A DNA stretch of 64,000 nt, from positions 220,671 through 284,670 of the forward strand of contig JAIOPI010000021.1 of assembly GCA_021413965.1 (NCBI GenBank). The letters are read 5' to 3'. Origin of the DNA: Lentisphaerota bacterium (GTDB taxonomy: Bacteria; Verrucomicrobiota; Kiritimatiellia; UBA8416; JAIOPI01). Under the pieces are notes generated by a model, which made no database searches, was not told the origin of the DNA, and saw nothing but the letters and a program-made list of their open reading frames with translations. Shown here in pieces: positions 3,181-64,000 of the stretch. The position numbers were made by a program, and so were the translations under genes. How positions within the stretch are numbered: position 1 is the first letter of the stretch; every line of letters starts with the position of its first letter.

Positions 3181-3364
3181 GCGAATGTGGTGGGCGTTTG
3201 GTGCGCAACTGGGACGGCCATTTCACCTCATCCTCTGCGTTCTCGCCGGCGGTGCGTACCCGGAGTACAGCACCGCCGGCGACGCCTTGAGGCTGGGGCA
3301 AACTGGCCATCCCATTTGCGCATCGCGCCTGCGGCGCGAAGCCAAACGCCCACCACGTTTGCCC
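3181..3364. repeat. Nested-palindrome element A (~185 bp, MITE/REP-like) with terminal motif GAATGTGGTGGGCGTTTGG
   Basis: Left end gcgaatgtggtgggcgtttggtgcg (3181-3205) is inverted at ccaaacgcccaccacgtttgcc (3341-3364). Inner inverted repeats are ttgcgcaactgggacggccat and ggccatcccatttgcgca. Confidence 0.7.
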
Positions 3365-3642
3365 TCGCTTTGCACCCCGCCGGCGGAGCGGGGTGCTGGC
3401 GAGTTCGGACTGGGGACGCCGCTTAAATGGACACATCGTCACCACCGATGATGCCTTCCGCCTACGCGCAGACGCTACGGCGGATCTGTGAGGCTGGCTT
3501 GCCCGCCGTAGCCGATGGCGAAGGCGGGGGCAAACGGGCCGTTCGCGAGTCCAGATTTGGGCAATGAGCTTGTCGTCAGCCCATCAGTTTCTCCGCTCCG
3601 AACTCGCCGTCGCCCCGTCTGCCACGGGGCGACTGGCGAGGG

Positions 3643-3827
3643 CAAACGTGGTGGGCGTTTGGGTGCCCGCCCGCCGCGGGCGGGATGCGCATCGGGTGCG
3701 GCAAGCTTGCCGGAGCGCAAGGCGCGGGAGGCGGCGCCATACTCTTGGGTATGCGCCGCCTCTCGCAACGCCGCGATCTGGCAAGATCGCCGCACCCGAT
3801 GCGCACCAAACGCCCACCACATTCGCG
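3643..3827. repeat. Nested-palindrome element B (~185 bp), tandem to A with swapped ends
   Basis: Left caaacgtggtgggcgtttgg is inverted at ccaaacgcccaccacattcgcg. The inner 25-bp inverted repeat is gcgcatcgggtgcggcaagcttgcc / ggcaagatcgccgcacccgatgcgc. Confidence 0.7.
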
Positions 3828-3908
3828 TCAACCCGCCACCATCGCCTCGCGCGCGAGCCGCGCGGTTCCGGCTTGCACCGCGTCGGCGCGGGCGTGGTAG
3901 TGTGGGGC

Positions 3909-4844
3909 ATGTCACGTCGCTATGCCATCGTGGGGTGCGGGGCCGTTGGCGGCTACTACGGCGCCTGCCTCCAACGCGCCGGCGCCGAGGTGCACTACCT
4001 GCTGCACCGCGATTATGACCATGTGCGCGCGCACGGCCTGCGTATCGACTCCAAATTCGGCAACTTCGTCCTGCCGCGCGTTCATGCCGCGCAGCGGCCG
4101 GACCAGGTCCCACCTTGCGACGTGGTGCTGGTGGGGTTGAAGACCACCGCCAACCACGTGCTGCCGGAGATCCTGCCGCGGCTGCTGGCGCCGGGCGGGG
4201 TGGTACTCCTGCTGCAGAATGGGCTGGGGGAAGAGGACGCGCTGGCACGCATCCCCGGGGTCGGGACCATCGTCAGCGGACTGTGTTTCCTGTGCGCAAA
4301 CAAGGTGGGGCCCGGTCACGTCCTGCACCTCGACTATGGCGCCATCATGCTCGGCGAATATCGGGCCGATGGACGCCCGGCCGGCGTCACGCCCGCCATG
4401 CAGGCGATCGCCGCCGATTTCAAGCCCACGGGCATCCCCATCGAATTGCTGGAGGACTTGCTGGGCGCACGCTGGAAGAAACTCGTGTGGAACATTCCCT
4501 TCAATGGCTTGTCGGTGCTGCTGAACACGGACACGCGGCGCCTCATGGACGATCCGGGCCTGCGTCCGGTTATCCGCGGCCTGATGGAGGAGGTCGTGGC
4601 CGCCTCCGCCGCCACGGGGCACGCGGTCCCGGCGGGATTCATCGACAAGATGGTGGCGCAGACGGAAGCGATGGCGGCCTACTTGCCCAGCATGAAACTC
4701 GACTACGACGCCGGGCGCCTGCTCGAACTGAGCAGCATGTACGAGGCGCCCCTGCGACAGGCCAGCGCCGCTGGCGCCACCATGCCCCTGACCGAAGCGC
4801 TGTGGCGGGAGTTGGGGTTCATGGAAAACTCCAAGGGGCGGTGA
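3909..4844 (+). CDS. panE: 2-dehydropantoate 2-reductase (ketopantoate reductase)
   Basis: MSRRYAIVGCGAVGGYYGACL is a Rossmann GxGxxG; the LVGLKTTAN region and the C-terminal ApbA domain follow. The start is M116 of ORF 3564; the upstream part of that ORF is a translation of the repeats. Confidence 0.9.
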   Translation: MSRRYAIVGCGAVGGYYGACLQRAGAEVHYLLHRDYDHVRAHGLRIDSKFGNFVLPRVHAAQRPDQVPPCDVVLVGLKTTANHVLPEILPRLLAPGGVVLLLQNGLGEEDALARIPGVGTIVSGLCFLCANKVGPGHVLHLDYGAIMLGEYRADGRPAGVTPAMQAIAADFKPTGIPIELLEDLLGARWKKLVWNIPFNGLSVLLNTDTRRLMDDPGLRPVIRGLMEEVVAASAATGHAVPAGFIDKMVAQTEAMAAYLPSMKLDYDAGRLLELSSMYEAPLRQASAAGATMPLTEALWRELGFMENSKGR

Positions 4845-5104
4845 CGAGCGCGTCCGGCTGTTGCGGCGGAAGTTTGCCTACGGATCACCCAGCGCAGCGC
4901 CACCGCAACCAAAGCAGGTGGAATCTGGAACTCAGGAAATCAGGAGCGGCAGTCGTGCCCGATCCTTCTTGAGTTCCTGAGTTCCTGATAGTCTTCTCAG
5001 GAAAGCGCGATATTGGCGGATTGTCGTACAGGGTGACACGGATGGGGAGATGAGATGGGAACCGTTACGCGACTTGCCATGCGGTGCGCCGCAGGAGACT
5101 TCGA

Positions 5105-6064
5105 ATGAACTATGTGCAGCTCGGCAAGACCGACCTGATGGTTTCGCGCATTTGTTTTGGCTGCTGGCAGCTGTCACCCCGCTTCTGGGGCGACGTGCCG
5201 CTCAAGCCTTGGGAGGCGGCGTTGAGCGTGGCGCTCGAGCGGGGCGTCAACTTCATCGATACGGCGGATGCGTATGGCGAGGGCTATGCCGAGGAGTGTC
5301 TCGGGAATTACATGCACGCGCAGGGAGTCCGTGATCGCCTCGTCCTGGCGACCAAGTTCTACTGGCACTACACGGATGACGGCGGGCGGTATCCCGATAC
5401 GGCGCACGACCGCGTCCTGCAGGCATGCGAGGCATCGCTGCGGAGATTGCGCACGGATCGCATCGATCTGTACCAGGTGCACGCATTCGATCCGCTGACG
5501 CGACCGGAGGAGGTGGGGGCCGCCCTGCGCAGGCTGAAGCAGGAGGGCAAAGTGCGGTGGTGTGGCGTCAGCAACCTCAACGCCGAACAGATGCGGATGT
5601 ACCAGGCGCATGTTCCCATCGAGTGCCTGCAACCGCTCTACAACCTGATCGACCGCGACGTGGAGTGCGCCGAGTTGCCGTACTGCCAGGCCAACCGTGT
5701 CGGCGTGATTCCGTACTCCCCGTTGCACCGTGGGTTGCTGACGGGCAAATACCGGCCGGACACGGTGTTCACGGATAATCGCAACGAGTTGCCACTGTAT
5801 CATGGCCGCGCGTTTCAGCGCATGCTGGCGGCTATGGACGAGCTGCGGCCTGTGGCCGCAGACCTGGGACTGACGCTGCCGCAGTTGGCGGTGCGCTGGG
5901 TGTTGACGCATCCCGCCGTGACGGCCGCGATCGCCGGCGTGAAGACGCGCGAGCACATTGAAACCATCCTGCCTGCGGCGGAGGCCAACCTGCCCGCGGT
6001 GGTGTGGCACCAGGTGGCCGGCATCATCGCCAATGCGAAGGCCGAAGCGCTAAGACTGTTGTAA
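5105..6064 (+). CDS. Aldo/keto reductase family oxidoreductase
   Basis: MNYVQLGKTDLMVSRICFGCWQL ... IDTADAYGEGYAEE ... IDLYQVHAFDP are classic AKR motifs. Confidence 0.9.
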   Translation: MNYVQLGKTDLMVSRICFGCWQLSPRFWGDVPLKPWEAALSVALERGVNFIDTADAYGEGYAEECLGNYMHAQGVRDRLVLATKFYWHYTDDGGRYPDTAHDRVLQACEASLRRLRTDRIDLYQVHAFDPLTRPEEVGAALRRLKQEGKVRWCGVSNLNAEQMRMYQAHVPIECLQPLYNLIDRDVECAELPYCQANRVGVIPYSPLHRGLLTGKYRPDTVFTDNRNELPLYHGRAFQRMLAAMDELRPVAADLGLTLPQLAVRWVLTHPAVTAAIAGVKTREHIETILPAAEANLPAVVWHQVAGIIANAKAEALRLL

Positions 6065-8909: not shown

Positions 8910-9077
8910 GCGTTGTGCGTTTGGTGCGAATGTGGCGCGCCATTTTGCCGCATCCGCGTCGTTGCTTGGAACGGCGCGGATGCAGGTCCAGCGCCGTTCC
9001 AGACGCCTAGCGGCTGCAGCAAACTGACACGCCACATTCGCATCCCCGCTGCGCGGGGCGGGCCAAACGCACAACGC
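8910..9077. repeat. Nested-palindrome element C (permuted relative of A/B)
   Basis: gcgttgtgcgtttggtgcgaatgtggcg is inverted at cgccacattcgc ... ccaaacgcacaacgc, with a 21-bp hairpin insertion (atccccgctgcgcggggcggg) and inner inverted repeats gcatccgcg / cgcggatgc. It lies just upstream of the HAD gene. Confidence 0.65.
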
Positions 9078-11403: not shown

Positions 11404-11490
11404 CCAGGTGGCCCGCGACCTCCGGGCGCGGGTGTCGCAGGCGAAGCCTTTCTGGCACCGCCCGCGCCCGGAGATCGCGGGCCACCTCGG
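11404..11490. repeat. REP family 1: palindromic pair of the 28-bp motif AGGTGGCCCGCGACCTCCGGGCGCGGG
   Basis: aggtggcccgcgacctccgggcgcgggtg (11404-11434) and its inverted copy caccgcccgcgcccggagatcgcgggccacct (11457-11490) are separated by 23 bp, in the divergent intergenic region between the SGNH gene and clpS. Confidence 0.7.
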
Positions 11491-13707: not shown

Positions 13708-13777
13708 CGCCGCCCGGAGGTCGGCACCCACCTTCGGCGAGCGGCGCAAGGTGGCCCGCGATCTCCGGGCGCGGGTG
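13708..13777. repeat. REP family 1 palindromic pair
   Basis: gccgcccggaggtcggcacccaccttcggcg (an inverted variant) and aaggtggcccgcgatctccgggcgcgggtg (13748-13777), 8 bp apart. Confidence 0.65.
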
Positions 13778-18045: not shown

Positions 18046-19944
<1,899 letters not shown>

Positions 19945-19956
19945 CCGACGCCGCGC

Positions 19957-20069
19957 GGACACCCACCCCGCCCTCACGGGCACCCTTCCGGCGGAAGGGA
20001 TCAGCCTGAAAACAGGAAGCCGTCAATCCCCTCCCGGGGAGGGGTGCCCGTCAGGGCGGGGTGGGTGTT
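19957..20069. repeat. Compound palindromic element (REP family 3), bidirectional terminator-like
   Basis: The 31-bp outer inverted repeat acacccaccccgccctcacgggcacccttcc / ggaggggtgcccgtcagggcggggtgggtgt encloses two inner hairpins (cccttccggcggaaggg; cccctcccggggagggg). It sits between convergent recQ and the ABC permease. Confidence 0.65.
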
Positions 20070-20076
20070 TCAAACG

Positions 20077-20865
20077 CTACGAGCTTGCTGAGGAATAGGC
20101 GCGGAGGCCGGCGCGCCAGAAGACGGCCACGACGACGATGAAGGCGGCGAGCACGGCGGAGACGTGGAGGAAGAGGCCGGGATCGAAGGGTTCGAAGAAG
20201 AAGCGCACGGGCACGGAGGCCATGAGCGCGAAGGGCAGCACCGTGGTGAGCAGCACGCGCACGGCGCCGGTGTAGATGCGGTCGGGGCGTTCGATGAAGC
20301 GCGTCATGTGCCAGAACATCATCTGCAGGCCCTGGCCCCGGTGCCACCAGAAGACGGGGATGATGGTCAGCATGCGCATGAGGTAACGGAGGAGGAACCC
20401 CATGCACAGCGAGCCGGCCAGCAGGATGAGCCCGCCCGGGGTGATGGGGCCGGTGTAGCGGCTGAGGAAGTAGCCGAGGATGCCGAAGGCCATGAGCAGG
20501 TTGACGAACGAGTTGGCGGCGAAGTCGCGCAGGCTGAGCATGAAGAGCGGCGAGACGGGCCGGATCAGGTGGTAGTCGAGATCGCCGCGGTTAATCGACT
20601 GGGGCAATTGATAGAGGTTGTTGGCGAGCACGGTCATGTCGAGGGCGTCGAGCAGCAGGAAGCAGCCGACGAAGACCATGGCCTGGTTTTCGTCCCAGCC
20701 GCCCAGCGTGGTGGTATGCAGGTAGATGATGCGGAAGAAGACGATGTCGATGAAGTAGAAGAAGACATCCATGACGATGCGGAAGCAGAAATCGACGCGG
20801 AACTCCATGGCGCGGCTGAAGGAGAAGCGCAGGCAGTAGCCGTAGAGTGTGAGGTAGCGCCACAT
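20077..20865 (-). CDS. ABC-2 family transporter permease
   Basis: The real start is MWRYLTLYGYCLRF (M119 of the ORF); 6 TM helices, ABC-2 type. A 1-nt TGATG overlap couples it to the upstream permease. Confidence 0.8.
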   Translation of the reverse strand: MWRYLTLYGYCLRFSFSRAMEFRVDFCFRIVMDVFFYFIDIVFFRIIYLHTTTLGGWDENQAMVFVGCFLLLDALDMTVLANNLYQLPQSINRGDLDYHLIRPVSPLFMLSLRDFAANSFVNLLMAFGILGYFLSRYTGPITPGGLILLAGSLCMGFLLRYLMRMLTIIPVFWWHRGQGLQMMFWHMTRFIERPDRIYTGAVRVLLTTVLPFALMASVPVRFFFEPFDPGLFLHVSAVLAAFIVVVAVFWRAGLRAYSSASS

Positions 20866-21641
20866 CAGATGCCCACCCCCGAGTACTGATGCTGGCCGCG
20901 CTCCCACACGAGGCGGTAGAGCAGGGTGCAGACGACGGCCCAGGCGGTCACGACGAGCATGCCGGATACCCAGCGCGCGGGGGAGGTCAGGCCGAGGAGG
21001 GTTTCCACGGGGAAGGCGATGAGGTAGGCGAAGGGCATCCGGTACAGGAGCGCATGCGCCCAGTCGGGGAAGAGCGCGAGGGGCAGCATGGCGCCGCCGA
21101 GCAGGGACGTGAGGAAGCGCATGATGACGACGAGGCTCCAGACGTTGTCGGCCCAGAAGGCGATGAGCTCCAGCGTGGCCACCAGGACGAAGTTCAGGTA
21201 GGCGGCGACGAGCAGGCACGCCAGCCCGCCCGCGACGGATGCGGGCGAGAGCGAAAATTCGGAGGGGATGCCGATGGTGAAGGCGAAGAGCGTCATGACG
21301 AGGGCGAACTGGGCGGCGAAGATGCAGACGTAGGCCGTGGCGGCGGCCAGCTTGTAGCGGAAGAATGAGACCGGGTAGACGAGGTAGCGGGTCAGCGTGC
21401 CGTTGTAGATCTCTTCGGAGATGTCGCCCATTTCACCGCCCTGGACCATGCGGGCCGCGAGTGGCGCGGCCAGGTAGTAGAGCATCATGCCGGTAAAGCT
21501 GAAGGCGCCGACGTGATCCACCCCGCGCGTCGTGTAGATCGCCTGCCAGAGAAACCAGGCGACGCCGAACTGGGCCAGCAGCGATCCGAGAAACTGCGAC
21601 CAGAAGTCCATGCGGTAGGAGAGGACCTTCCGGATCTCCAT
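20865..21641 (-). CDS. ABC-2 family transporter permease
   Basis: MEIRKVLSYRMDFWSQFLGSLLAQFG is a typical ABC-2 permease N-terminus; the alternative start 21710 has no Shine-Dalgarno. Confidence 0.75.
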   Translation of the reverse strand: MEIRKVLSYRMDFWSQFLGSLLAQFGVAWFLWQAIYTTRGVDHVGAFSFTGMMLYYLAAPLAARMVQGGEMGDISEEIYNGTLTRYLVYPVSFFRYKLAAATAYVCIFAAQFALVMTLFAFTIGIPSEFSLSPASVAGGLACLLVAAYLNFVLVATLELIAFWADNVWSLVVIMRFLTSLLGGAMLPLALFPDWAHALLYRMPFAYLIAFPVETLLGLTSPARWVSGMLVVTAWAVVCTLLYRLVWERGQHQYSGVGI

Positions 21642-21714
21642 GGTGAAGACCGCGAGGGGCCAGCGCGGGAACCCACTTGGCGGCGATGCGGTTGACGAGG
21701 TGGTGAGCATGAGA

Positions 21715-21970
21715 TTCAGGGGGGAAGGGGGGGAGTAGGAGTAGGGTTCAGGGTTCGGGGTTCAGGGGTACCGTACGGTTATGGGGTGACACTTTCGGGA
21801 TCGGATGTTCACGCAGAGACCACAGAGGGCGCAGAGAGGGACTGAAAGTCTGTGATCGCTGCATCGCTGCGTAAGATTCCTTCCCGAGACATTCAACATT
21901 CAACTCGCAACGTTCTTTCCTGAACCCTGAACCCCGAACCCCGCTTTCTCCCCCTCCTCCGCCCCCCGCA
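21715..21970. mobile_element. MITE-like element with ~55-bp terminal inverted repeats built from (GGGTTCN)3 plus G-runs
   Basis: Left arm ggggggaagggggggagtaggagtagggttcagggttcggggttcagggg; right arm cctgaaccctgaaccccgaaccccgctttctccccctcctccgcccccc; a 148-bp core lies between them. The element fills the whole 265-bp gap between the ABC ATPase stop and the permease start, where tight coupling is expected. Confidence 0.6.
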
Positions 21971-21974
21971 CGCG

Positions 21975-59684: not shown

Positions 59685-62447
59685 CTACTTCGCCACGACT
59701 TCGGACGGCTGCCGCTTGCCGTTGGTCACGGGAGCCGTCGCCACACGGACCACGTCCACGGCACAAACCTTGTACTCGGGGCACAGTGCATCCTTGTCGG
59801 ACACGCTGCTGGTGAGGGTGTTGATCTTGAGTTCCGGGAAGTGGAAGGTCGTGTACAGCACGCCGGGCTTCACGCTGGTGGAGCGGTAGGCGTGCAGCCG
59901 GATCTCTCCGCGCGCGGATGACAGCGCCACCAGGTCCCCGTCCTCGATGCGCTTGGCCGCGGCATCGTCGGGATGGATCAGCAGCACGTCCGCGCCCAGG
60001 ATGTCCGCATTGCCCGTGCGCCGGGTCATGGTGCCGCAGTTGTAGTGCTCCAGCTTGCGGCCCGTGGTGAGGATGTAGGGGAACCGCTCGCCGTTATCCA
60101 CAATCTCCGAGGACTCCTCCCAGTCGAAGTAGTGGAACTTGCCGCGCCCGCGTTTGAACGAGTCGACATGGATGAGCGGCGAGTCGTGGCCGTCCGGATA
60201 CACCGGCCACTGCTTGCCGTCCGTGCCGAGTTCGTCCCACTTCACGCCGGCGAAGAACGGCACGACGCGCGCGATCTCCTCCAGCAGCACGGCCGGGTCC
60301 GGGCCCTTTTGCGGGTAGCCCATGCGATTCATGATGTCGACCATGATCTGCCCGTCGGTCTTCGTGCCCGCCAGCGGCGGCACGACCTCCAGCACGCGCT
60401 GAATGCGCCGCTCGCCGTTGGTGAACGTTCCGCTCTTCTCGAGGAACGTCGTCGCCGGCAGCACCACGTGCGCCAACTTTGCGGTTTCGGTGAGGAAGAT
60501 CTCCTGGACCACCAGCAGGTCGAGGCACGTCAGCGCGGCGAGCACATGGTTGGTGTTCGGGTCCGTCTGCGCGAGGTCCTCGCCCATGAGCCACAGCGCC
60601 TTGAGCTTGCCGGCCAGCGCGGCCTCATACATCTGCGGAATCTTCAAGCCGGCGTGCTTCGGCAGTGTCACGCCATAGATCGACTCGTAGTGGGCCTGGA
60701 CATCGGGCAGGGTGACATCCAGATAGCCCGCGCCCTGGTGGGGCTGCGTCCCCATGTCCGCACAGCCCTGGACGTTGTTCTGGCCGCGCAGCGGGTTCAC
60801 GCCCACGCCCGGCCGGCCGATGTTCCCGGTCATCATGGCCAGGTTCGCGATCAGGTTGATGGTGCGCGTGCCCTGGCTGTGCTCGGTGACCCCCAGGCCG
60901 TGGAACTCCATGGCGTTGCGGGCCGAGGCGTAGGCGATCGCCGCCTCGCGGACGAGGTGGCGATCCACGCCGCAGATGCGCTCCATGGCGACCACATCCA
61001 GCGTGCGGATCTGCGCCTCGAACTCGGCAAAGCCCTCGCAGCGCTGGGCCACAAAATCCCGTTTTACCAGGCCCGCCTCGATGATGAAGTAGGCCATCAT
61101 GTTGAGCAGCGCCACGTTGGTGCCGGGCCGCAGGGCGAGGTGCCACTGTGCATAGGCCGCCAGCTCCGTGCGCATGGGGTCGATCACGATCAGCGTCGCG
61201 CCCTTCATGACCTTCTGCTTGATCTTCGCGCCGGTCACGGGGTGGCCGGAGGTCGGGTTGGCGCCGATGATCAGAATCAGGTCCGTCTGGTCCAGGCAGG
61301 CGATGGAGTTGGTGGCCGCGCCGGTGCCGAAGCTGCGCTGCATGCCCAGCGCCGTGGGCGAGTGGCAGACGCGCGCGCAGCTGTCGATGTTGTTCGTGCC
61401 GACGACGGCGCGAATGAACTTCTGCATCAGGTAGTTCTCTTCGTTCGTGCAGCGCGCGGAGGAAATGCCGGCGATGGCGTCGGGGCCGTGCGCGCCGCGG
61501 ATGCGGGTCAGCTCCCCGGCGATGAAATCGTAGGCTTCGTCCCACGTGGCGGGCTGGAGCGTGCCCTGGCGCCGGACCAGGGGCTGGCGCAGGCGGTCGG
61601 GGTGGGTGACGAAGCGGAAGGCGTAGCGCCCCTTCAGGCAGGTGTGCCCGCGGTTGGACTTGGCATCCTTCGGGGCCGTGATCGCGAGGATCTCGTTCTC
61701 CTTCACATGCACGTCGAGGTTGCAGCCGACCCCGCAGTAGGAGCACACCGTTCGCTGCGAGCGCGTGGCCTCGTGCTTGCGCGGCAGATTGATGTCCGTG
61801 ATCGCGCCCGTGGGGCAGGTCTGCGCACAGGCCCCGCAGGAGACGCAGGGCGACGCCTTGTAGGAGACGTCCGCGCCCATGATGACGCGGCTGTCGAACC
61901 CGCGGCCCTTCATCCCGAGCACGAACTGCCCCTGGATTTCGTCGCAGGCCCGGATGCAGCGGAAGCAGTTGATGCAGGCGCTCAAGTCCGCGCGCATGTA
62001 GGGGTGCGTGGTGTCCGGCCGGCGGTCCTGATGGTGTTTTCCCGGCGCGTAGCGCACGGCCGTGGGATCCAGGCCGACGTGCGCGATCACGTCCCGCAGT
62101 TCGGCGTCGCCGTTGCGCGGGGTCGAGGTCAGCTTGTCCACCGGGTAATCCGTCAGGACCAGCTCCACAATGTTGCGGCGCAGGCGCTGCACCCGGGGCG
62201 AGTGGTGGAAGATGTGCAGGTTCTCCGACACCGGCGTGTGACAGGAGGCGACGACGCGCCGCGGGCCGTCGGGCTTCAGCGCGACTTCGACCGAGCAGAC
62301 GCGGCAGGATCCGAAGGGCTCCAGCAGTTCGTCGTAACACAGCGTGGGAATCGTGCGCTTGCCGACGTGGCGCTCGACGAACTGCAGGATGGTTTCACCA
62401 TCGCGGATCTCAAAGGGCTGGCCGTCGATGTAGGCGATTGGGTTCAT
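59685..62447 (-). CDS. fdsA: Formate dehydrogenase alpha subunit, NAD-dependent type (N-terminal 2Fe-2S/4Fe-4S NuoG-like domains plus Mo-bisPGD catalytic domain; Cys, not Sec)
   Basis: CYDELLEPFGSCRVCSV, CINCFRCIRAC and CVSCGACAQTC are cluster motifs; the molybdopterin domain SCARVCHSPT has Cys at the Sec position and no in-frame TGA. Confidence 0.9.
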   Translation of the reverse strand: MNPIAYIDGQPFEIRDGETILQFVERHVGKRTIPTLCYDELLEPFGSCRVCSVEVALKPDGPRRVVASCHTPVSENLHIFHHSPRVQRLRRNIVELVLTDYPVDKLTSTPRNGDAELRDVIAHVGLDPTAVRYAPGKHHQDRRPDTTHPYMRADLSACINCFRCIRACDEIQGQFVLGMKGRGFDSRVIMGADVSYKASPCVSCGACAQTCPTGAITDINLPRKHEATRSQRTVCSYCGVGCNLDVHVKENEILAITAPKDAKSNRGHTCLKGRYAFRFVTHPDRLRQPLVRRQGTLQPATWDEAYDFIAGELTRIRGAHGPDAIAGISSARCTNEENYLMQKFIRAVVGTNNIDSCARVCHSPTALGMQRSFGTGAATNSIACLDQTDLILIIGANPTSGHPVTGAKIKQKVMKGATLIVIDPMRTELAAYAQWHLALRPGTNVALLNMMAYFIIEAGLVKRDFVAQRCEGFAEFEAQIRTLDVVAMERICGVDRHLVREAAIAYASARNAMEFHGLGVTEHSQGTRTINLIANLAMMTGNIGRPGVGVNPLRGQNNVQGCADMGTQPHQGAGYLDVTLPDVQAHYESIYGVTLPKHAGLKIPQMYEAALAGKLKALWLMGEDLAQTDPNTNHVLAALTCLDLLVVQEIFLTETAKLAHVVLPATTFLEKSGTFTNGERRIQRVLEVVPPLAGTKTDGQIMVDIMNRMGYPQKGPDPAVLLEEIARVVPFFAGVKWDELGTDGKQWPVYPDGHDSPLIHVDSFKRGRGKFHYFDWEESSEIVDNGERFPYILTTGRKLEHYNCGTMTRRTGNADILGADVLLIHPDDAAAKRIEDGDLVALSSARGEIRLHAYRSTSVKPGVLYTTFHFPELKINTLTSSVSDKDALCPEYKVCAVDVVRVATAPVTNGKRQPSEVVAK

Positions 62448-62464
62448 TATCTGCTCTTGGTCGG

Positions 62465-62545
62465 AATCGTAATCTTAATCCTAATCGTAATCTCCCGCGG
62501 TTGGCCGGCGATTAAGATTAGGATTACGATTAAGATTATGACTGG
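62465..62545. repeat. AT-rich palindrome of hexamer repeats (AATCNT)5 ... (ANGATT)5 between fdsB and fdsA
   Basis: aatcgtaatcttaatcctaatcgtaatc tcccgcggttggccggcg attaagattaggattacgattaagatt; local GC is about 35% in a 68% GC genome; the arms have periodic mismatches at the N position. Confidence 0.7.
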
Positions 62546-62551
62546 GATTTG

Positions 62552-64000
62552 CTATTCAAAGTATTCCCGCAATTCCCCCTCGAAGTGTTTCAGCGCATTC
62601 TGGATCGGCAGCGGGACGCCGCTGCCGTGCGCGCACAGGCTGGTCAGCGCCATCGTGTCCAGCAGGTCATTCAGCAGCTCGCGGTTGAGTTTGGCGCGCC
62701 CGTGGGCTGCCGCGGCCAGCATCTCCTGCCCGCGCGTCGAGCCCAGGCGGCAGGGGAAGCACTTGCCGCACGATTCCGCCGCGCAGAACTCCATGAGATG
62801 TTCGAGGTACTGGATCATCGGGAAACTTTCGGGAATGCCCAGGATGCTGCCATGCCCGAGCAGGAAGCCCGCCTCCCGGAACGATTCGAAATCAATGGTC
62901 AGGCTGCCGAACATCGATTTGGGGACGAGGCCCCCCAGCGGGCCGCCGATGTGCAGGGCCTTGACGGGCACACGGAAGCCGCCGCCGAGCGTGTCGATCA
63001 CCGTGGTTAGCGGCGTGCCCATGGGCACTTCGTAGAGGCCGGGGCGATTGAACACGCCGTTGAGGCAAACCAGCTTCGCCCCTGTTGACTGCGGGGTGCC
63101 GATGCGGGCAAAGGCTTCGCCGCCGGCGATCAGGATCTGATGCACGTGGGCAAAGGTCTCGACATTGTTGACGACGGTCGGCTGGCCGTAAAGCCCTTGC
63201 GTGGTGGGGTAGGGCGGGCGGGCGCTGACTTCGGGGCGGCGGCCCTCGATTGACGCGATCAGCGCCGTCTCCTCGCCGCAGATGTAGGCGCCCGCGCCGG
63301 CAATGACCTTGAACGTGAACGAGAAGTCCGTGCCGAACACGCGCGCGCCGGCGGCGCCGGCAGCCTCCGCCTCGCGCACGGCGGCACGCGTGGCCTCCAC
63401 GGCTTCGGGGTACTCGGCGCGAATGTAGACGACGCCCTCGCTGGCGCCGACGACCCAGCCCGCCACGAGCATACCGAAGAGCACGCGGTGAGGCTGCTGC
63501 TCCAGCAGGTAGCGGTCAATGTACGCGCCGGGGTCGCCCTCATCGCCGTTGCAGACGATGTACTTCCTGGCGCCGGGGGCGGCCTTCGCCGCGGCCCACT
63601 TGGCGCCGGTGGGGAAGCCCGCCCCGCCGCGGCCGCGCAGCCTGGCGCGCGTGACCTCGTCCAGCGCGGCTTCCGGCGGACGCTGCAAGATCTCGCGCAG
63701 CGGTTCGTAGTAGGCGGCGACGCCGGGAAACGCGGCGGTCAGCACGGCGGGCGTGCCATGCGCGGCCACCGCATAGGTATCGCGGCGTGGCACTTCCGGC
63801 GTCGCCAGGATGGCGGCCAGGTTGTCCACGTCGCGGCCCGAAAAGTTGCGGCCGGCGATGTGGAATGCCGCGTTCTCGTGGCAGCGGCCCAGGCAGGTGA
63901 TGACGCCGACGTCCTCCGGCTTGAATGCTCGACCCAGGGCCTCCGCGACGCGCGGCTGCGTGCCCGCGCACAAGCAGGCCGATCCGTTACACACCAGCGC
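62552..64000 (-). CDS. fdsB: Formate dehydrogenase beta subunit (NuoF-like NADH-binding/FMN/4Fe-4S, with an N-terminal NuoE-like 2Fe-2S region; 5' end beyond the window)
   Basis: GRGGAGFPTGAKW, ICGEETALIASIEG, ESCGKCFPCR. The frame stays open upstream of the track GTG at 63994 (ALVCNGSACLCAG looks like a 2Fe-2S motif), so the N-terminus is off-window. Confidence 0.85.
   Translation of the reverse strand, partial: ALVCNGSACLCAGTQPRVAEALGRAFKPEDVGVITCLGRCHENAAFHIAGRNFSGRDVDNLAAILATPEVPRRDTYAVAAHGTPAVLTAAFPGVAAYYEPLREILQRPPEAALDEVTRARLRGRGGAGFPTGAKWAAAKAAPGARKYIVCNGDEGDPGAYIDRYLLEQQPHRVLFGMLVAGWVVGASEGVVYIRAEYPEAVEATRAAVREAEAAGAAGARVFGTDFSFTFKVIAGAGAYICGEETALIASIEGRRPEVSARPPYPTTQGLYGQPTVVNNVETFAHVHQILIAGGEAFARIGTPQSTGAKLVCLNGVFNRPGLYEVPMGTPLTTVIDTLGGGFRVPVKALHIGGPLGGLVPKSMFGSLTIDFESFREAGFLLGHGSILGIPESFPMIQYLEHLMEFCAAESCGKCFPCRLGSTRGQEMLAAAAHGRAKLNRELLNDLLDTMALTSLCAHGSGVPLPIQNALKHFEGELREYFE

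Follow-up and report, generated by a model that had tools for sequence, protein, structure and literature searches.

Polar palindromes of TAATC hexamers: the element between fdsB and fdsA of a Lentisphaerota bacterium and its counterparts in other genomes

The formate dehydrogenase genes fdsB and fdsA lie at the end of a 64-kb stretch of contig JAIOPI010000021.1 of a Lentisphaerota bacterium (the whole stretch is called the window below). The short spacer between them contains a palindrome of tandem hexamers, whose nature was investigated here. The host is a Lentisphaerae metagenome-assembled genome (MAG), and the closest homologues of FdsA, FdsB and polynucleotide phosphorylase were found in MAGs of Lentisphaerae, Kiritimatiellia and Verrucomicrobia. 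The polynucleotide phosphorylase encoded in the window shares 100% identity with that of a 'Lentisphaerae bacterium' MAG. A betaproteobacterial source with fds genes of the Cupriavidus type was rejected on the basis of these homologues. Both fds genes are encoded on the minus strand. The 3' part of fdsB (62552-64000), coding for a NuoF-like NAD/FMN subunit, runs off the window end; it matched the NuoF family of NCBIfam with 372 bits, and its product is 100% identical to an NCBI protein (P0241) named 'formate dehydrogenase [Lentisphaerae bacterium]'. The gene fdsA (59685-62447) encodes an alpha subunit of 920 aa and matched TIGR01591 with 779 bits, above the cutoff. These matches confirm the gene identities of a first-pass annotation. 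The N-terminus of FdsA (MNPIAYIDGQP) aligns with that of the closest relative, locus L001 (MNPSAFINGQP), as does the C-terminus of FdsB with its L001 counterpart. The molybdenum-cofactor genes moaA, moeA, moaC, mobB and moaE are present in the window as well. Its GC content was measured at 66.8%, instead of the 68% given before.

The spacer comprises 104 nt (62448-62551). It is bounded by the fdsA start codon, ATG, read from the complementary strand at 62445-62447, and by the fdsB stop codon, TAG, read likewise at 62552-62554. On the plus strand it shows the pattern (K-AATC-N)5, a 17-nt GC core and (GATTA-N)5. In the sense of the mRNA the 5' arm is (UAAUC-N)5, corresponding to GATTAa GATTAg GATTAc GATTAa GATTA on the plus strand (62510-62538). 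The 3' arm is (N-GAUUA)4 followed by GAUUC, on the plus strand GAATCg TAATCt TAATCc TAATCg TAATC (62464-62492). Between the arms lies the GC-rich core TCCCGCGGTTGGCCGGC (62493-62509), which is partly self-complementary and leaves a 5-nt apical loop in the predicted fold. Including the closing gtc/gac pairs (62460-62462 with 62540-62542), the whole imperfect hairpin or cruciform of the minus strand measures 83 nt (62460-62542) in the RNA and DNA folds. It begins 9 nt past the fdsB stop and finishes 12 nt ahead of the fdsA AUG. Spacer coordinates and arms were as described in the first-pass annotation. The complementarity of the arms is 82% over 39 nt, and the predicted fold puts single mismatches at each sixth base, the N of every hexamer, which also agrees with the earlier description. 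The N positions read T-G-C-T-G; in the GATTAN sense none is T, except the base after the last unit.

The element is unique within the window. Six matches to AATCNTAATCNT and, with at most one mismatch, eight matches to TAATCNTAATC were found in the 64 kb, all of them inside the spacer element (expected 0.01 and 0.27, respectively). A relaxed search of the window for two-unit arrays yielded no further TAATC array. The RNA fold reached -36.7 kcal/mol (z -5.4) and the DNA fold -23.1 kcal/mol (z -6.1), and in both cases none of 200 shuffled sequences folded as well. Folding of the fdsBA mRNA, considered possible before, was supported, since the 83-nt hairpin was retained in a 231-nt context; the fdsA AUG and an AAGAG tract were left unpaired. 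The palindrome is real and not a product of chance. It does not resemble an intrinsic terminator, as the stem is AT-rich and no U-tract follows, and no promoter-like or terminator-like site was detected in 62000-63000. The best match of the element in Rfam 15 was a miRNA-precursor model with 31.8 bits, compared to a gathering score of 90. Rfam searches of the entire window and of 16 related loci likewise gave no match.

Orthologous junctions were compared at 64 loci with fds homologues (361 kb). L001 shares 88% FdsA identity with the window, the other 63 at most 82%. In the 73-nt spacer of L001 a single arm is present, AATCGTTATCGTTATCCTAATCT, with an N pattern, G-C-T, equal to that of three consecutive units of the 5' arm in the window; no hairpin and no significant fold (z +0.83) were detected there. 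The next relatives, L002 (82%) and L003 (80%), possess spacers of 30 and 32 nt without the element. At 72% identity the genes overlap or are separated by 129 nt of unrelated sequence. Among 40 more distant metagenome junctions every resolvable one has a spacer of 0-33 nt. Not even a two-unit TAATC array was present in any of the 63 fds loci apart from L001.

These results bear directly on the function first suggested for the array, a locus-specific operator responding to formate or molybdenum through a ModE- or FdsR-like regulator. The arrays indeed resemble repeated half-sites, and NuoE/NuoF-type genes adjoin arrays in 3 of 150 neighbour genes examined in other genomes (L104, L040, L052), an observation made post hoc. 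However, such an fds-specific operator fails because the orthologous fdsB-fdsA junctions other than that of L001 lack the array; this lack was the very outcome that the annotation had named as speaking against its proposal. Furthermore, the search it had suggested for copies near Mo-enzyme genes gave none within the 64-kb window, neither upstream of the Mo-cofactor genes nor elsewhere. The element lies inside the operon and not at a promoter, no promoter-like site was found, and the neighbours of arrays in other genomes span 167 unrelated families. The operator is largely refuted and has to be regarded as highly improbable. The second earlier suggestion, a conserved element for differential expression within the operon, could not be upheld either: the other orthologous spacers are free of the array, and that of L001 has one arm and no significant fold.

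Counterparts of the element were searched in 185,579 species genomes with four contiguous perfect TAATCN units. At least 119 loci were obtained; all class statistics refer to the matches listed, and genes at these loci were called heuristically with a rough GC3-based caller. Among these matches 82 are located, to judge by their record titles, in MAGs or isolates of the Planctomycetes-Verrucomicrobia-Lentisphaerae (PVC) superphylum, namely Verrucomicrobiota (including Akkermansia and Chthoniobacter flavus Ellin428), Lentisphaerota, Kiritimatiellia and Planctomycetota. The exact architecture of the window element recurs at many of them. Several copies per MAG were seen elsewhere, e.g. in CSMAG_2466 and MFD00008.bin.2.151. 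The class was defined by four or more B-TAATC units in direct succession, then a loop of about 10-30 nt and four or more GATTA-V units, in that polarity, at an intergenic position in a PVC host. The window element agrees in every respect, with 5 + 5 units, a 17-nt loop, the order TAATCN to NGATTA and a Lentisphaerae host. Neither for the motif or the class, nor for PVC repeats or inverted tandem repeats of this kind, was a published description found, and the class is apparently undescribed.

The polarity of the arrays is pronounced. For array pairs not more than 80 nt apart, TAATCN preceded NGATTA in 48 cases and followed it in 3; a check with 7-mers gave 45 versus 6. As a control, 120 viral contigs with the four-unit pattern (1.06 Mb, median GC 33%, largely giant-virus MAGs) were analysed, which gave 0 versus 1. 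Loops measure 6-79 nt, two thirds of them 10-27 nt, and arms mostly consist of 4-6 units, so that the window copy is typical in both respects. No significant correlation was obtained between the lengths of paired arms. Most arrays are intergenic (114 of 129). An association with phages was rejected: viral arrays are numerous, but they occur in AT-rich or giant-virus contigs and are never palindromic.

The arms are not conserved for pairing. In 24 palindromes 38 N positions were complementary across the arms, compared to 39.5 +/- 2.3 in shuffled arms (23 of 74 in the symmetric register), and arm-to-arm compensatory pairing at N was therefore rejected as being no better than in shuffled arms. 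The conserved feature is the pentamer together with its 6-nt phase. N itself is C, A or G, with T in just 7%, regardless of gene orientation. Avoidance of ATG in 5' leaders was tried as the cause of the rare T and discarded, since the depletion does not depend on the orientation of the genes. The polarity of 48:3 is not explicable by hairpin thermodynamics, whereas inverted transposon ends or oriented binding sites could explain it. Fixed polarity, a conserved pentamer with free N and a narrow arm size are expected of repeated protein-recognition sites in inverted ends; a hairpin selected for pairing would not show such features. The earlier preference for half-sites over a simple hairpin is supported in one part, the TAATC/GATTA unit at 6-nt phase without N pairing, while the formate/Mo operator attached to it is not.

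Growth of the arrays by slippage is indicated by runs of identical N and by a periodicity of 12 or 18 nt. This signature would also fit a minisatellite formed in situ, in which a slippage-born array acquired its inverted arm by intrastrand template switching, as in quasipalindromes, and which would have neither mobility nor function. The presence of only one arm in L001, two further tandem-repeat palindromes with 7-mer and 8-mer units in the same window, and adjoining hybrid arrays elsewhere (GAGCAC, GAGTAA, GATCAA) are consistent with such an origin. However, it leaves unexplained why the same pentamer occurs in four PVC phyla, why polarity is 48:3, why T is excluded at N and why arms have 4-6 units. 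Template switching predicts complementary N positions, and none were observed beyond chance; moreover, some relatives carry terminal inverted repeats and target-site duplications. An origin as minisatellite is considered unlikely.

Arrays were also seen to grade into the related hexamers CGAGCA, GAGTAA, GAGCAA and GATCAA (L074, L085, L099, L121 and others), which suggests turnover of units within one array. Outside the PVC bacteria, a multi-copy family occurs in the Desulfobacteraceae MAG CSMAG_2466 (L006, L040, L058, L065). Its loop, TTACTCAAAAC, and an asymmetric flank (...CTGAACGAAATAACTTCCCTATTTCA) are conserved, and every copy shows an identical mismatched N pattern. Because all copies share this pattern, the mismatches were inherited and are not a product of decay.

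Regarding the genes around the arrays, 150 neighbours were assigned to 167 Pfam families, none of which appeared more than three times, and no transposase was enriched among them. A link to a particular neighbour gene or to a transposase was rejected on these data. Co-directional genes flank most of the palindromes; convergent pairs hardly ever do. Within 100 nt of gene starts 34% of the GATTAN-sense ends were found, compared to 20% of the TAATCN-sense ends. Single arrays showed weak or no strand bias, and a strongly strand-specific element of 5' untranslated regions was discarded for that reason. In two Lentisphaerota loci (L056, about 4534-4650; L089, 38-151) the array starts directly past the stop of a small conserved open reading frame ending in ...MLVRIVSML(V/C)(G/L)LIRS.... 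TAATC/GATTA arrays adjoin NuoE/NuoF-type genes in three further lineages (L052, 2532-2652; L104, 1638-1890; L040, 2040-2135); with 3 of 150 neighbours this is a marginal enrichment. The array of L052, a Verrucomicrobiota MAG, consists of (GATTAN)4 and is placed between HoxF/FdsB-like and HoxU/NuoG-N-terminal-like genes, 19 nt before the start codon, at a junction analogous to that of fdsB and fdsA.

Alternatively, the palindrome could be an RNA element maintained by selection in the fdsBA transcript, where it would stabilise the upstream fdsB segment, direct processing or couple translation. In the case of coupling, a ribosome terminating at the fdsB stop would melt the 5' arm and thereby free the (GAUUAN)n tract before the fdsA AUG. 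The position of the stable hairpin between stop and AUG, with AUG and AAGAG tract unpaired, is in accordance with this, as are (GATTAN)4 at the L052 junction of NuoF-like and 2Fe-2S-subunit genes, a slight excess of sense GATTAN within 25-100 nt of gene starts, and the polarity, which always places GATTAN beside the flanking gene. In contrast, the closest relative has no hairpin, and the element is missing at all other fdsB-fdsA junctions, most of which are tightly coupled with spacers of 0-33 nt. The absence of compensatory pairing at N and of an Rfam family and the low strand bias of single arrays argue in the same direction. Selection for such an RNA function seems quite unlikely.

A further explanation takes the arrays as generic sites of an abundant DNA- or RNA-binding host factor of PVC bacteria, recognising TAATC at 6-nt phase, with a structural, insulating or global regulatory role. 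Conservation of pentamer, phase and polarity with N free save for the exclusion of T, the uniform arm size, the distribution centred on one superphylum and the near lack of palindromes between convergent genes would be expected from such a factor. But no candidate protein is known, arrays are estimated to occur about once per 60 kb, which would be sparse for a nucleoid protein, and orthologous positions do not conserve the element. Some copies, in addition, are situated inside elements bounded by target-site duplications, which makes a transposase the likelier binding protein. A host factor is rather unlikely.

Evidence for mobility comes from relatives in which the hexamer core is part of a larger element. 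An extended family with the layout GAATGGCRCTAASTTAAG...(TAATCN)n...(NGATTA)n...CTTAASTTAGYGCCATTC was identified in Akkermansia sp. and in MAGs of Kiritimatiellia, Lentisphaerales and Planctomycetota. It combines terminal inverted repeats (G/C)AATGGCRCTAASTTAAG, also written GAATGGCGCTAAGTTAAG, with the TAATC hexamers as core and with a loop of 15 nt, CATTCTCCACCAGKA, that is conserved. Six copies were located: two in L031 (4516-4652 and 4712-4836) and one each in L050 (72-196), L095 (876-1012), L120 (about 495-705) and L083 (about 2765-2975). Copy-specific flanking direct repeats of about 10-12 bp are present in five of the six and are weak only in L050. They are exact (10/10) in three scored copies; by eye, those of L120 are exact and those of L083 differ by one indel. 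Examples are GGCGTCCCGCC, GGCGGGACGCC, AGGCCCGGTCC(C) and GGGGCGTCAG. Symmetric direct repeats of at least 9/10 flank 5 of 45 palindromes, compared to 8 of 523 permuted controls, and exact ones 3 palindromes and no control. In L031 each of the two tandem copies occupies one arm of a GC-rich hairpin, and the target duplication of one is the reverse complement of that of the other. The family has no Rfam entry, and its terminal inverted repeat was not found in viral contigs. The terminal inverted repeat of this family (…AACTTAAG…) and its target-site duplication of 10-12 bp may resemble those of IS4/IS231-type insertion sequences.

In a second family, with copies from Verrucomicrobiae, the same TAATC core is enclosed by different, imperfect outer inverted repeats GGGGCGCATT..CACTTTTTGGG. 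Its copies were found in L100 (1154-1231 and 3784-3851), L106 (6075-6144) and L113 (6715-6773). The outer repeats, GGGGCGCATTNCACTTTTTGGG..., are clear in the second L100 copy and in L113 and weaker in L106 and the first L100 copy. The sole sign of a target-site duplication is an 8/9 flank match of one L100 copy, seen by eye. One-armed arrays followed after 20-30 nt by ...ATGCGCCC (L004, L056, L089, L095, L104) look like solo ends of this family. A gene start at ATGCGCCC was ruled out, as no open reading frame follows; the motif is probably the outer end of the terminal inverted repeats of the second family.

In the window copy the inverted repeat is the hexamer array itself, whereas these relatives have separate outer repeats. 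A possible 10-bp target-site duplication is formed by ATCTGCTCTT (62449-62458), immediately before the fdsA start codon, and ATTTGCTATT (62547-62556), overlapping the fdsB stop codon. The two sequences agree at 8/10 positions, at distances of 5 and 8 nt from the arrays; because such a score is attained by 15% of permuted flank pairs, the repeat is only suggestive of a target-site duplication. If it is real, the ancestral junction would have read ...GAA TAG CAAAT A ATG..., with a 6-nt spacer like those of the relatives, and the duplication would have preserved the bases immediately before the fdsA AUG.

The properties described were compared with known systems. Transposable elements of the miniature inverted-repeat type (MITEs) with an internal minisatellite are known, e.g. 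from Porphyromonas gingivalis (PMC4596501). Like MITEs, the TAATC element is small (about 80-250 bp), non-coding, palindromic, intergenic and variably present between relatives: one half occurs in L001, and none in L002, L003 and more distant junctions. The families with a TAATC core share terminal inverted repeats and copy-specific flanking repeats of 10-12 bp with them, and an internal tandem array of variable copy number is common to minisatellite-containing MITEs and the TAATC element. In contrast to MITEs, the window copy is without terminal inverted repeats beyond its hexamer arms, its flanking repeat is weak (8/10), and no cognate transposase was identified for TAATC palindromes. Furthermore, the hexamer core is shared by two or more families whose terminal inverted repeats are unrelated, and it also occurs 'naked'.

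Repetitive extragenic palindromic sequences (REPs), their mosaic elements (BIMEs) and their hairpin-forming pairs (REPINs), known from proteobacteria, are, like the spacer element, extragenic imperfect palindromes, dispersed, sometimes within operons and transcribed as stem-loops. The intercistronic REP of E. coli malE-malF stabilises the upstream mRNA. REP/REPIN sequences associated with REP-associated tyrosine transposases (RAYT) carry a terminal GTAG/CGTC tag at a stem-loop of 20-40 nt (PMC3733652), and the REP families reported in PVC bacteria (O. terrae, Planctomycetes) are GTAG-tagged, unlike the TAATC class. Neither GTAG nor CGTC is present in 62448-62551. The spacer element also differs in its length of 83 nt, in being composed of AT-rich tandem hexamers and not of a unique GC-rich stem, and in arms unpaired at every sixth base. 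REPs are common between convergent genes, where TAATC palindromes are rare.

Subterminal motifs bound repeatedly by a transposase occur as AAACGG hexamers in maize Ac/Ds, as 12-bp TNPA sites in En/Spm and as multiple TnsB or MuA sites at the ends of Tn7 and Mu, respectively. They have in common with the TAATC arms a short motif repeated at each end, inverted ends of fixed polarity and conservation of sequence instead of pairing. However, these known motifs are interspersed over 100-250 bp, whereas the TAATC hexamers, as putative sites, are strictly contiguous at 6-nt phase. To our knowledge, no bacterial insertion sequence family has contiguous hexamer ends.

Contiguous repeats are bound by the omega repressor of pSM19035, a ribbon-helix-helix protein that recognises unspaced heptads WATCACW cooperatively. 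Its operators resemble TAATC arrays as contiguous repeats of 6-7 bp in direct and inverted orientation, and for omega the relative orientation affects binding. They are located at promoters of a plasmid regulon; in contrast, TAATC arrays are chromosomal, dispersed, not placed at promoters and not conserved at orthologous sites. At the RNA level, TRAP binds (G/U)AG repeats spaced by 2-3 nt in the trp leader of Bacillus. A periodicity of 5-6 nt, a short conserved core and free spacer bases are similar in both cases, and a TRAP-type site can compete with an alternative hairpin. But TRAP sites are strand-specific and confined to the leaders of one regulon, whereas TAATC arrays show little strand bias and form self-complementary pairs.

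Overall, the palindrome of the window is most likely non-autonomous mobile or selfish DNA of MITE- or REP-like type. The best explanation, to which we assign a probability of roughly 55%, is a mobile-type or self-expanding palindromic element that is tolerated as an intercistronic stem-loop. In this model, the spacer holds one copy of the widespread polar class typical of PVC genomes, (B-TAATC)4-6, a loop of about 10-30 nt and (GATTA-V)4-6. The element may have entered, or grown in, the originally very short fdsB-fdsA junction of the common ancestor of the host MAG and L001. Later changes would have come from slippage (6, 12 or 18 nt at a time) and from the loss of an arm. Its hexamers would act as repeated protein-recognition sites, inverted at the two ends, and not as pairing partners. 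In the operon it would merely be co-transcribed as an imperfect 83-nt stem-loop between fdsB stop and fdsA start, which could be tolerated because the region of the fdsA start codon stays unpaired. From these comparisons we infer that the window copy is mobile, that its hexamers are recognised by a protein and that it is neutral for the expression of fds.

Several observations weigh against this explanation. The 64-kb window contains a single copy, which has no terminal inverted repeats beyond gtc/gac and whose 8/10 flanking repeat lies inside the null range (15%). Most 'naked' copies elsewhere are without a clear target-site duplication, and neither enrichment of a transposase among the neighbours nor an autonomous element was found. 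The orthologous arm with the same N pattern, kept across 12% protein divergence, could reflect selection. The weak excess of GATTAN-sense ends within 100 nt of gene starts (34% versus 20%) and the scarcity of palindromes between convergent genes may indicate a role connected with expression.

Beyond the single locus, the TAATCV palindromes might represent a so far unrecognised superfamily of non-autonomous PVC elements with spill-over into Desulfobacterota, Ignavibacteriota and others. Their contiguous hexamers would be oriented sites for a transposase or a host protein and would correspond in bacteria to the subterminal hexamer repeats of Ac/Ds, and the core would have been combined with several terminal inverted repeats or nested in the apex of other palindromes. 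We consider this wider interpretation possible and propose it only tentatively.

The window contains other repeats besides the spacer element. The whole intergenic region 21711-21974 (264 nt) forms one long hairpin (-130.3 kcal/mol, z -7.4) without Rfam match; its outer arms, a G-rich tract with (GGGTTCR)3.6 and (YGAACCC)3.3 with a C-rich tract, enclose 150 nt. The 'G-rich + GGTTCAGGGTTCGGGGTTC' motif of this region was found twice in the Verrucomicrobiota MAG locus L052 (452-470 and 2558-2576). A tandem-repeat palindrome at 4922-4989, (GGAAMTCA)3, 21 nt, (TGAKTTCC)3, lies between the co-directional open reading frames 3564-4844 and 5084-6064 (RNA fold -38.9 kcal/mol, z -3.5). In 3181-3826, CCAAACGCCCACCACRTTYGC occurs four times on alternating strands (expected 0.02), giving long inverted repeats nested in one another; the copies form a local cluster of a REP-like, GC-rich repeat, and a related arm pair is present at 8925-9042. 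The palindrome 19959-20068, with 43-nt arms of 86% complementarity and a 24-nt loop, is a candidate bidirectional terminator between the convergent genes of RecQ (18046-19944, plus strand) and an ABC-2 transporter (20077-21219, minus strand). Two palindromes at 11406-11487 and 13711-13771, with arms 96% and 79% complementary, have AGGTGGCCCGCGA(C/T)CTCCGGGCG in common and constitute a dispersed repeat.

For the biology of formate dehydrogenase the element is of little consequence, being a recent passenger in the operon and not a conserved regulator. The genome biology of the PVC superphylum, including Akkermansia, gains more from it. The recurrence of a strictly polar hexamer palindrome across dozens of genomes in four phyla suggests a new family of small elements that are mobile or recognised by a protein. 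TAATC palindromes shape operon spacers and create long RNA hairpins, and they may mislead predictors of repeats, terminators and small RNAs. Furthermore, they could provide a handle on the transposase or binding protein and could serve as markers for strain typing.

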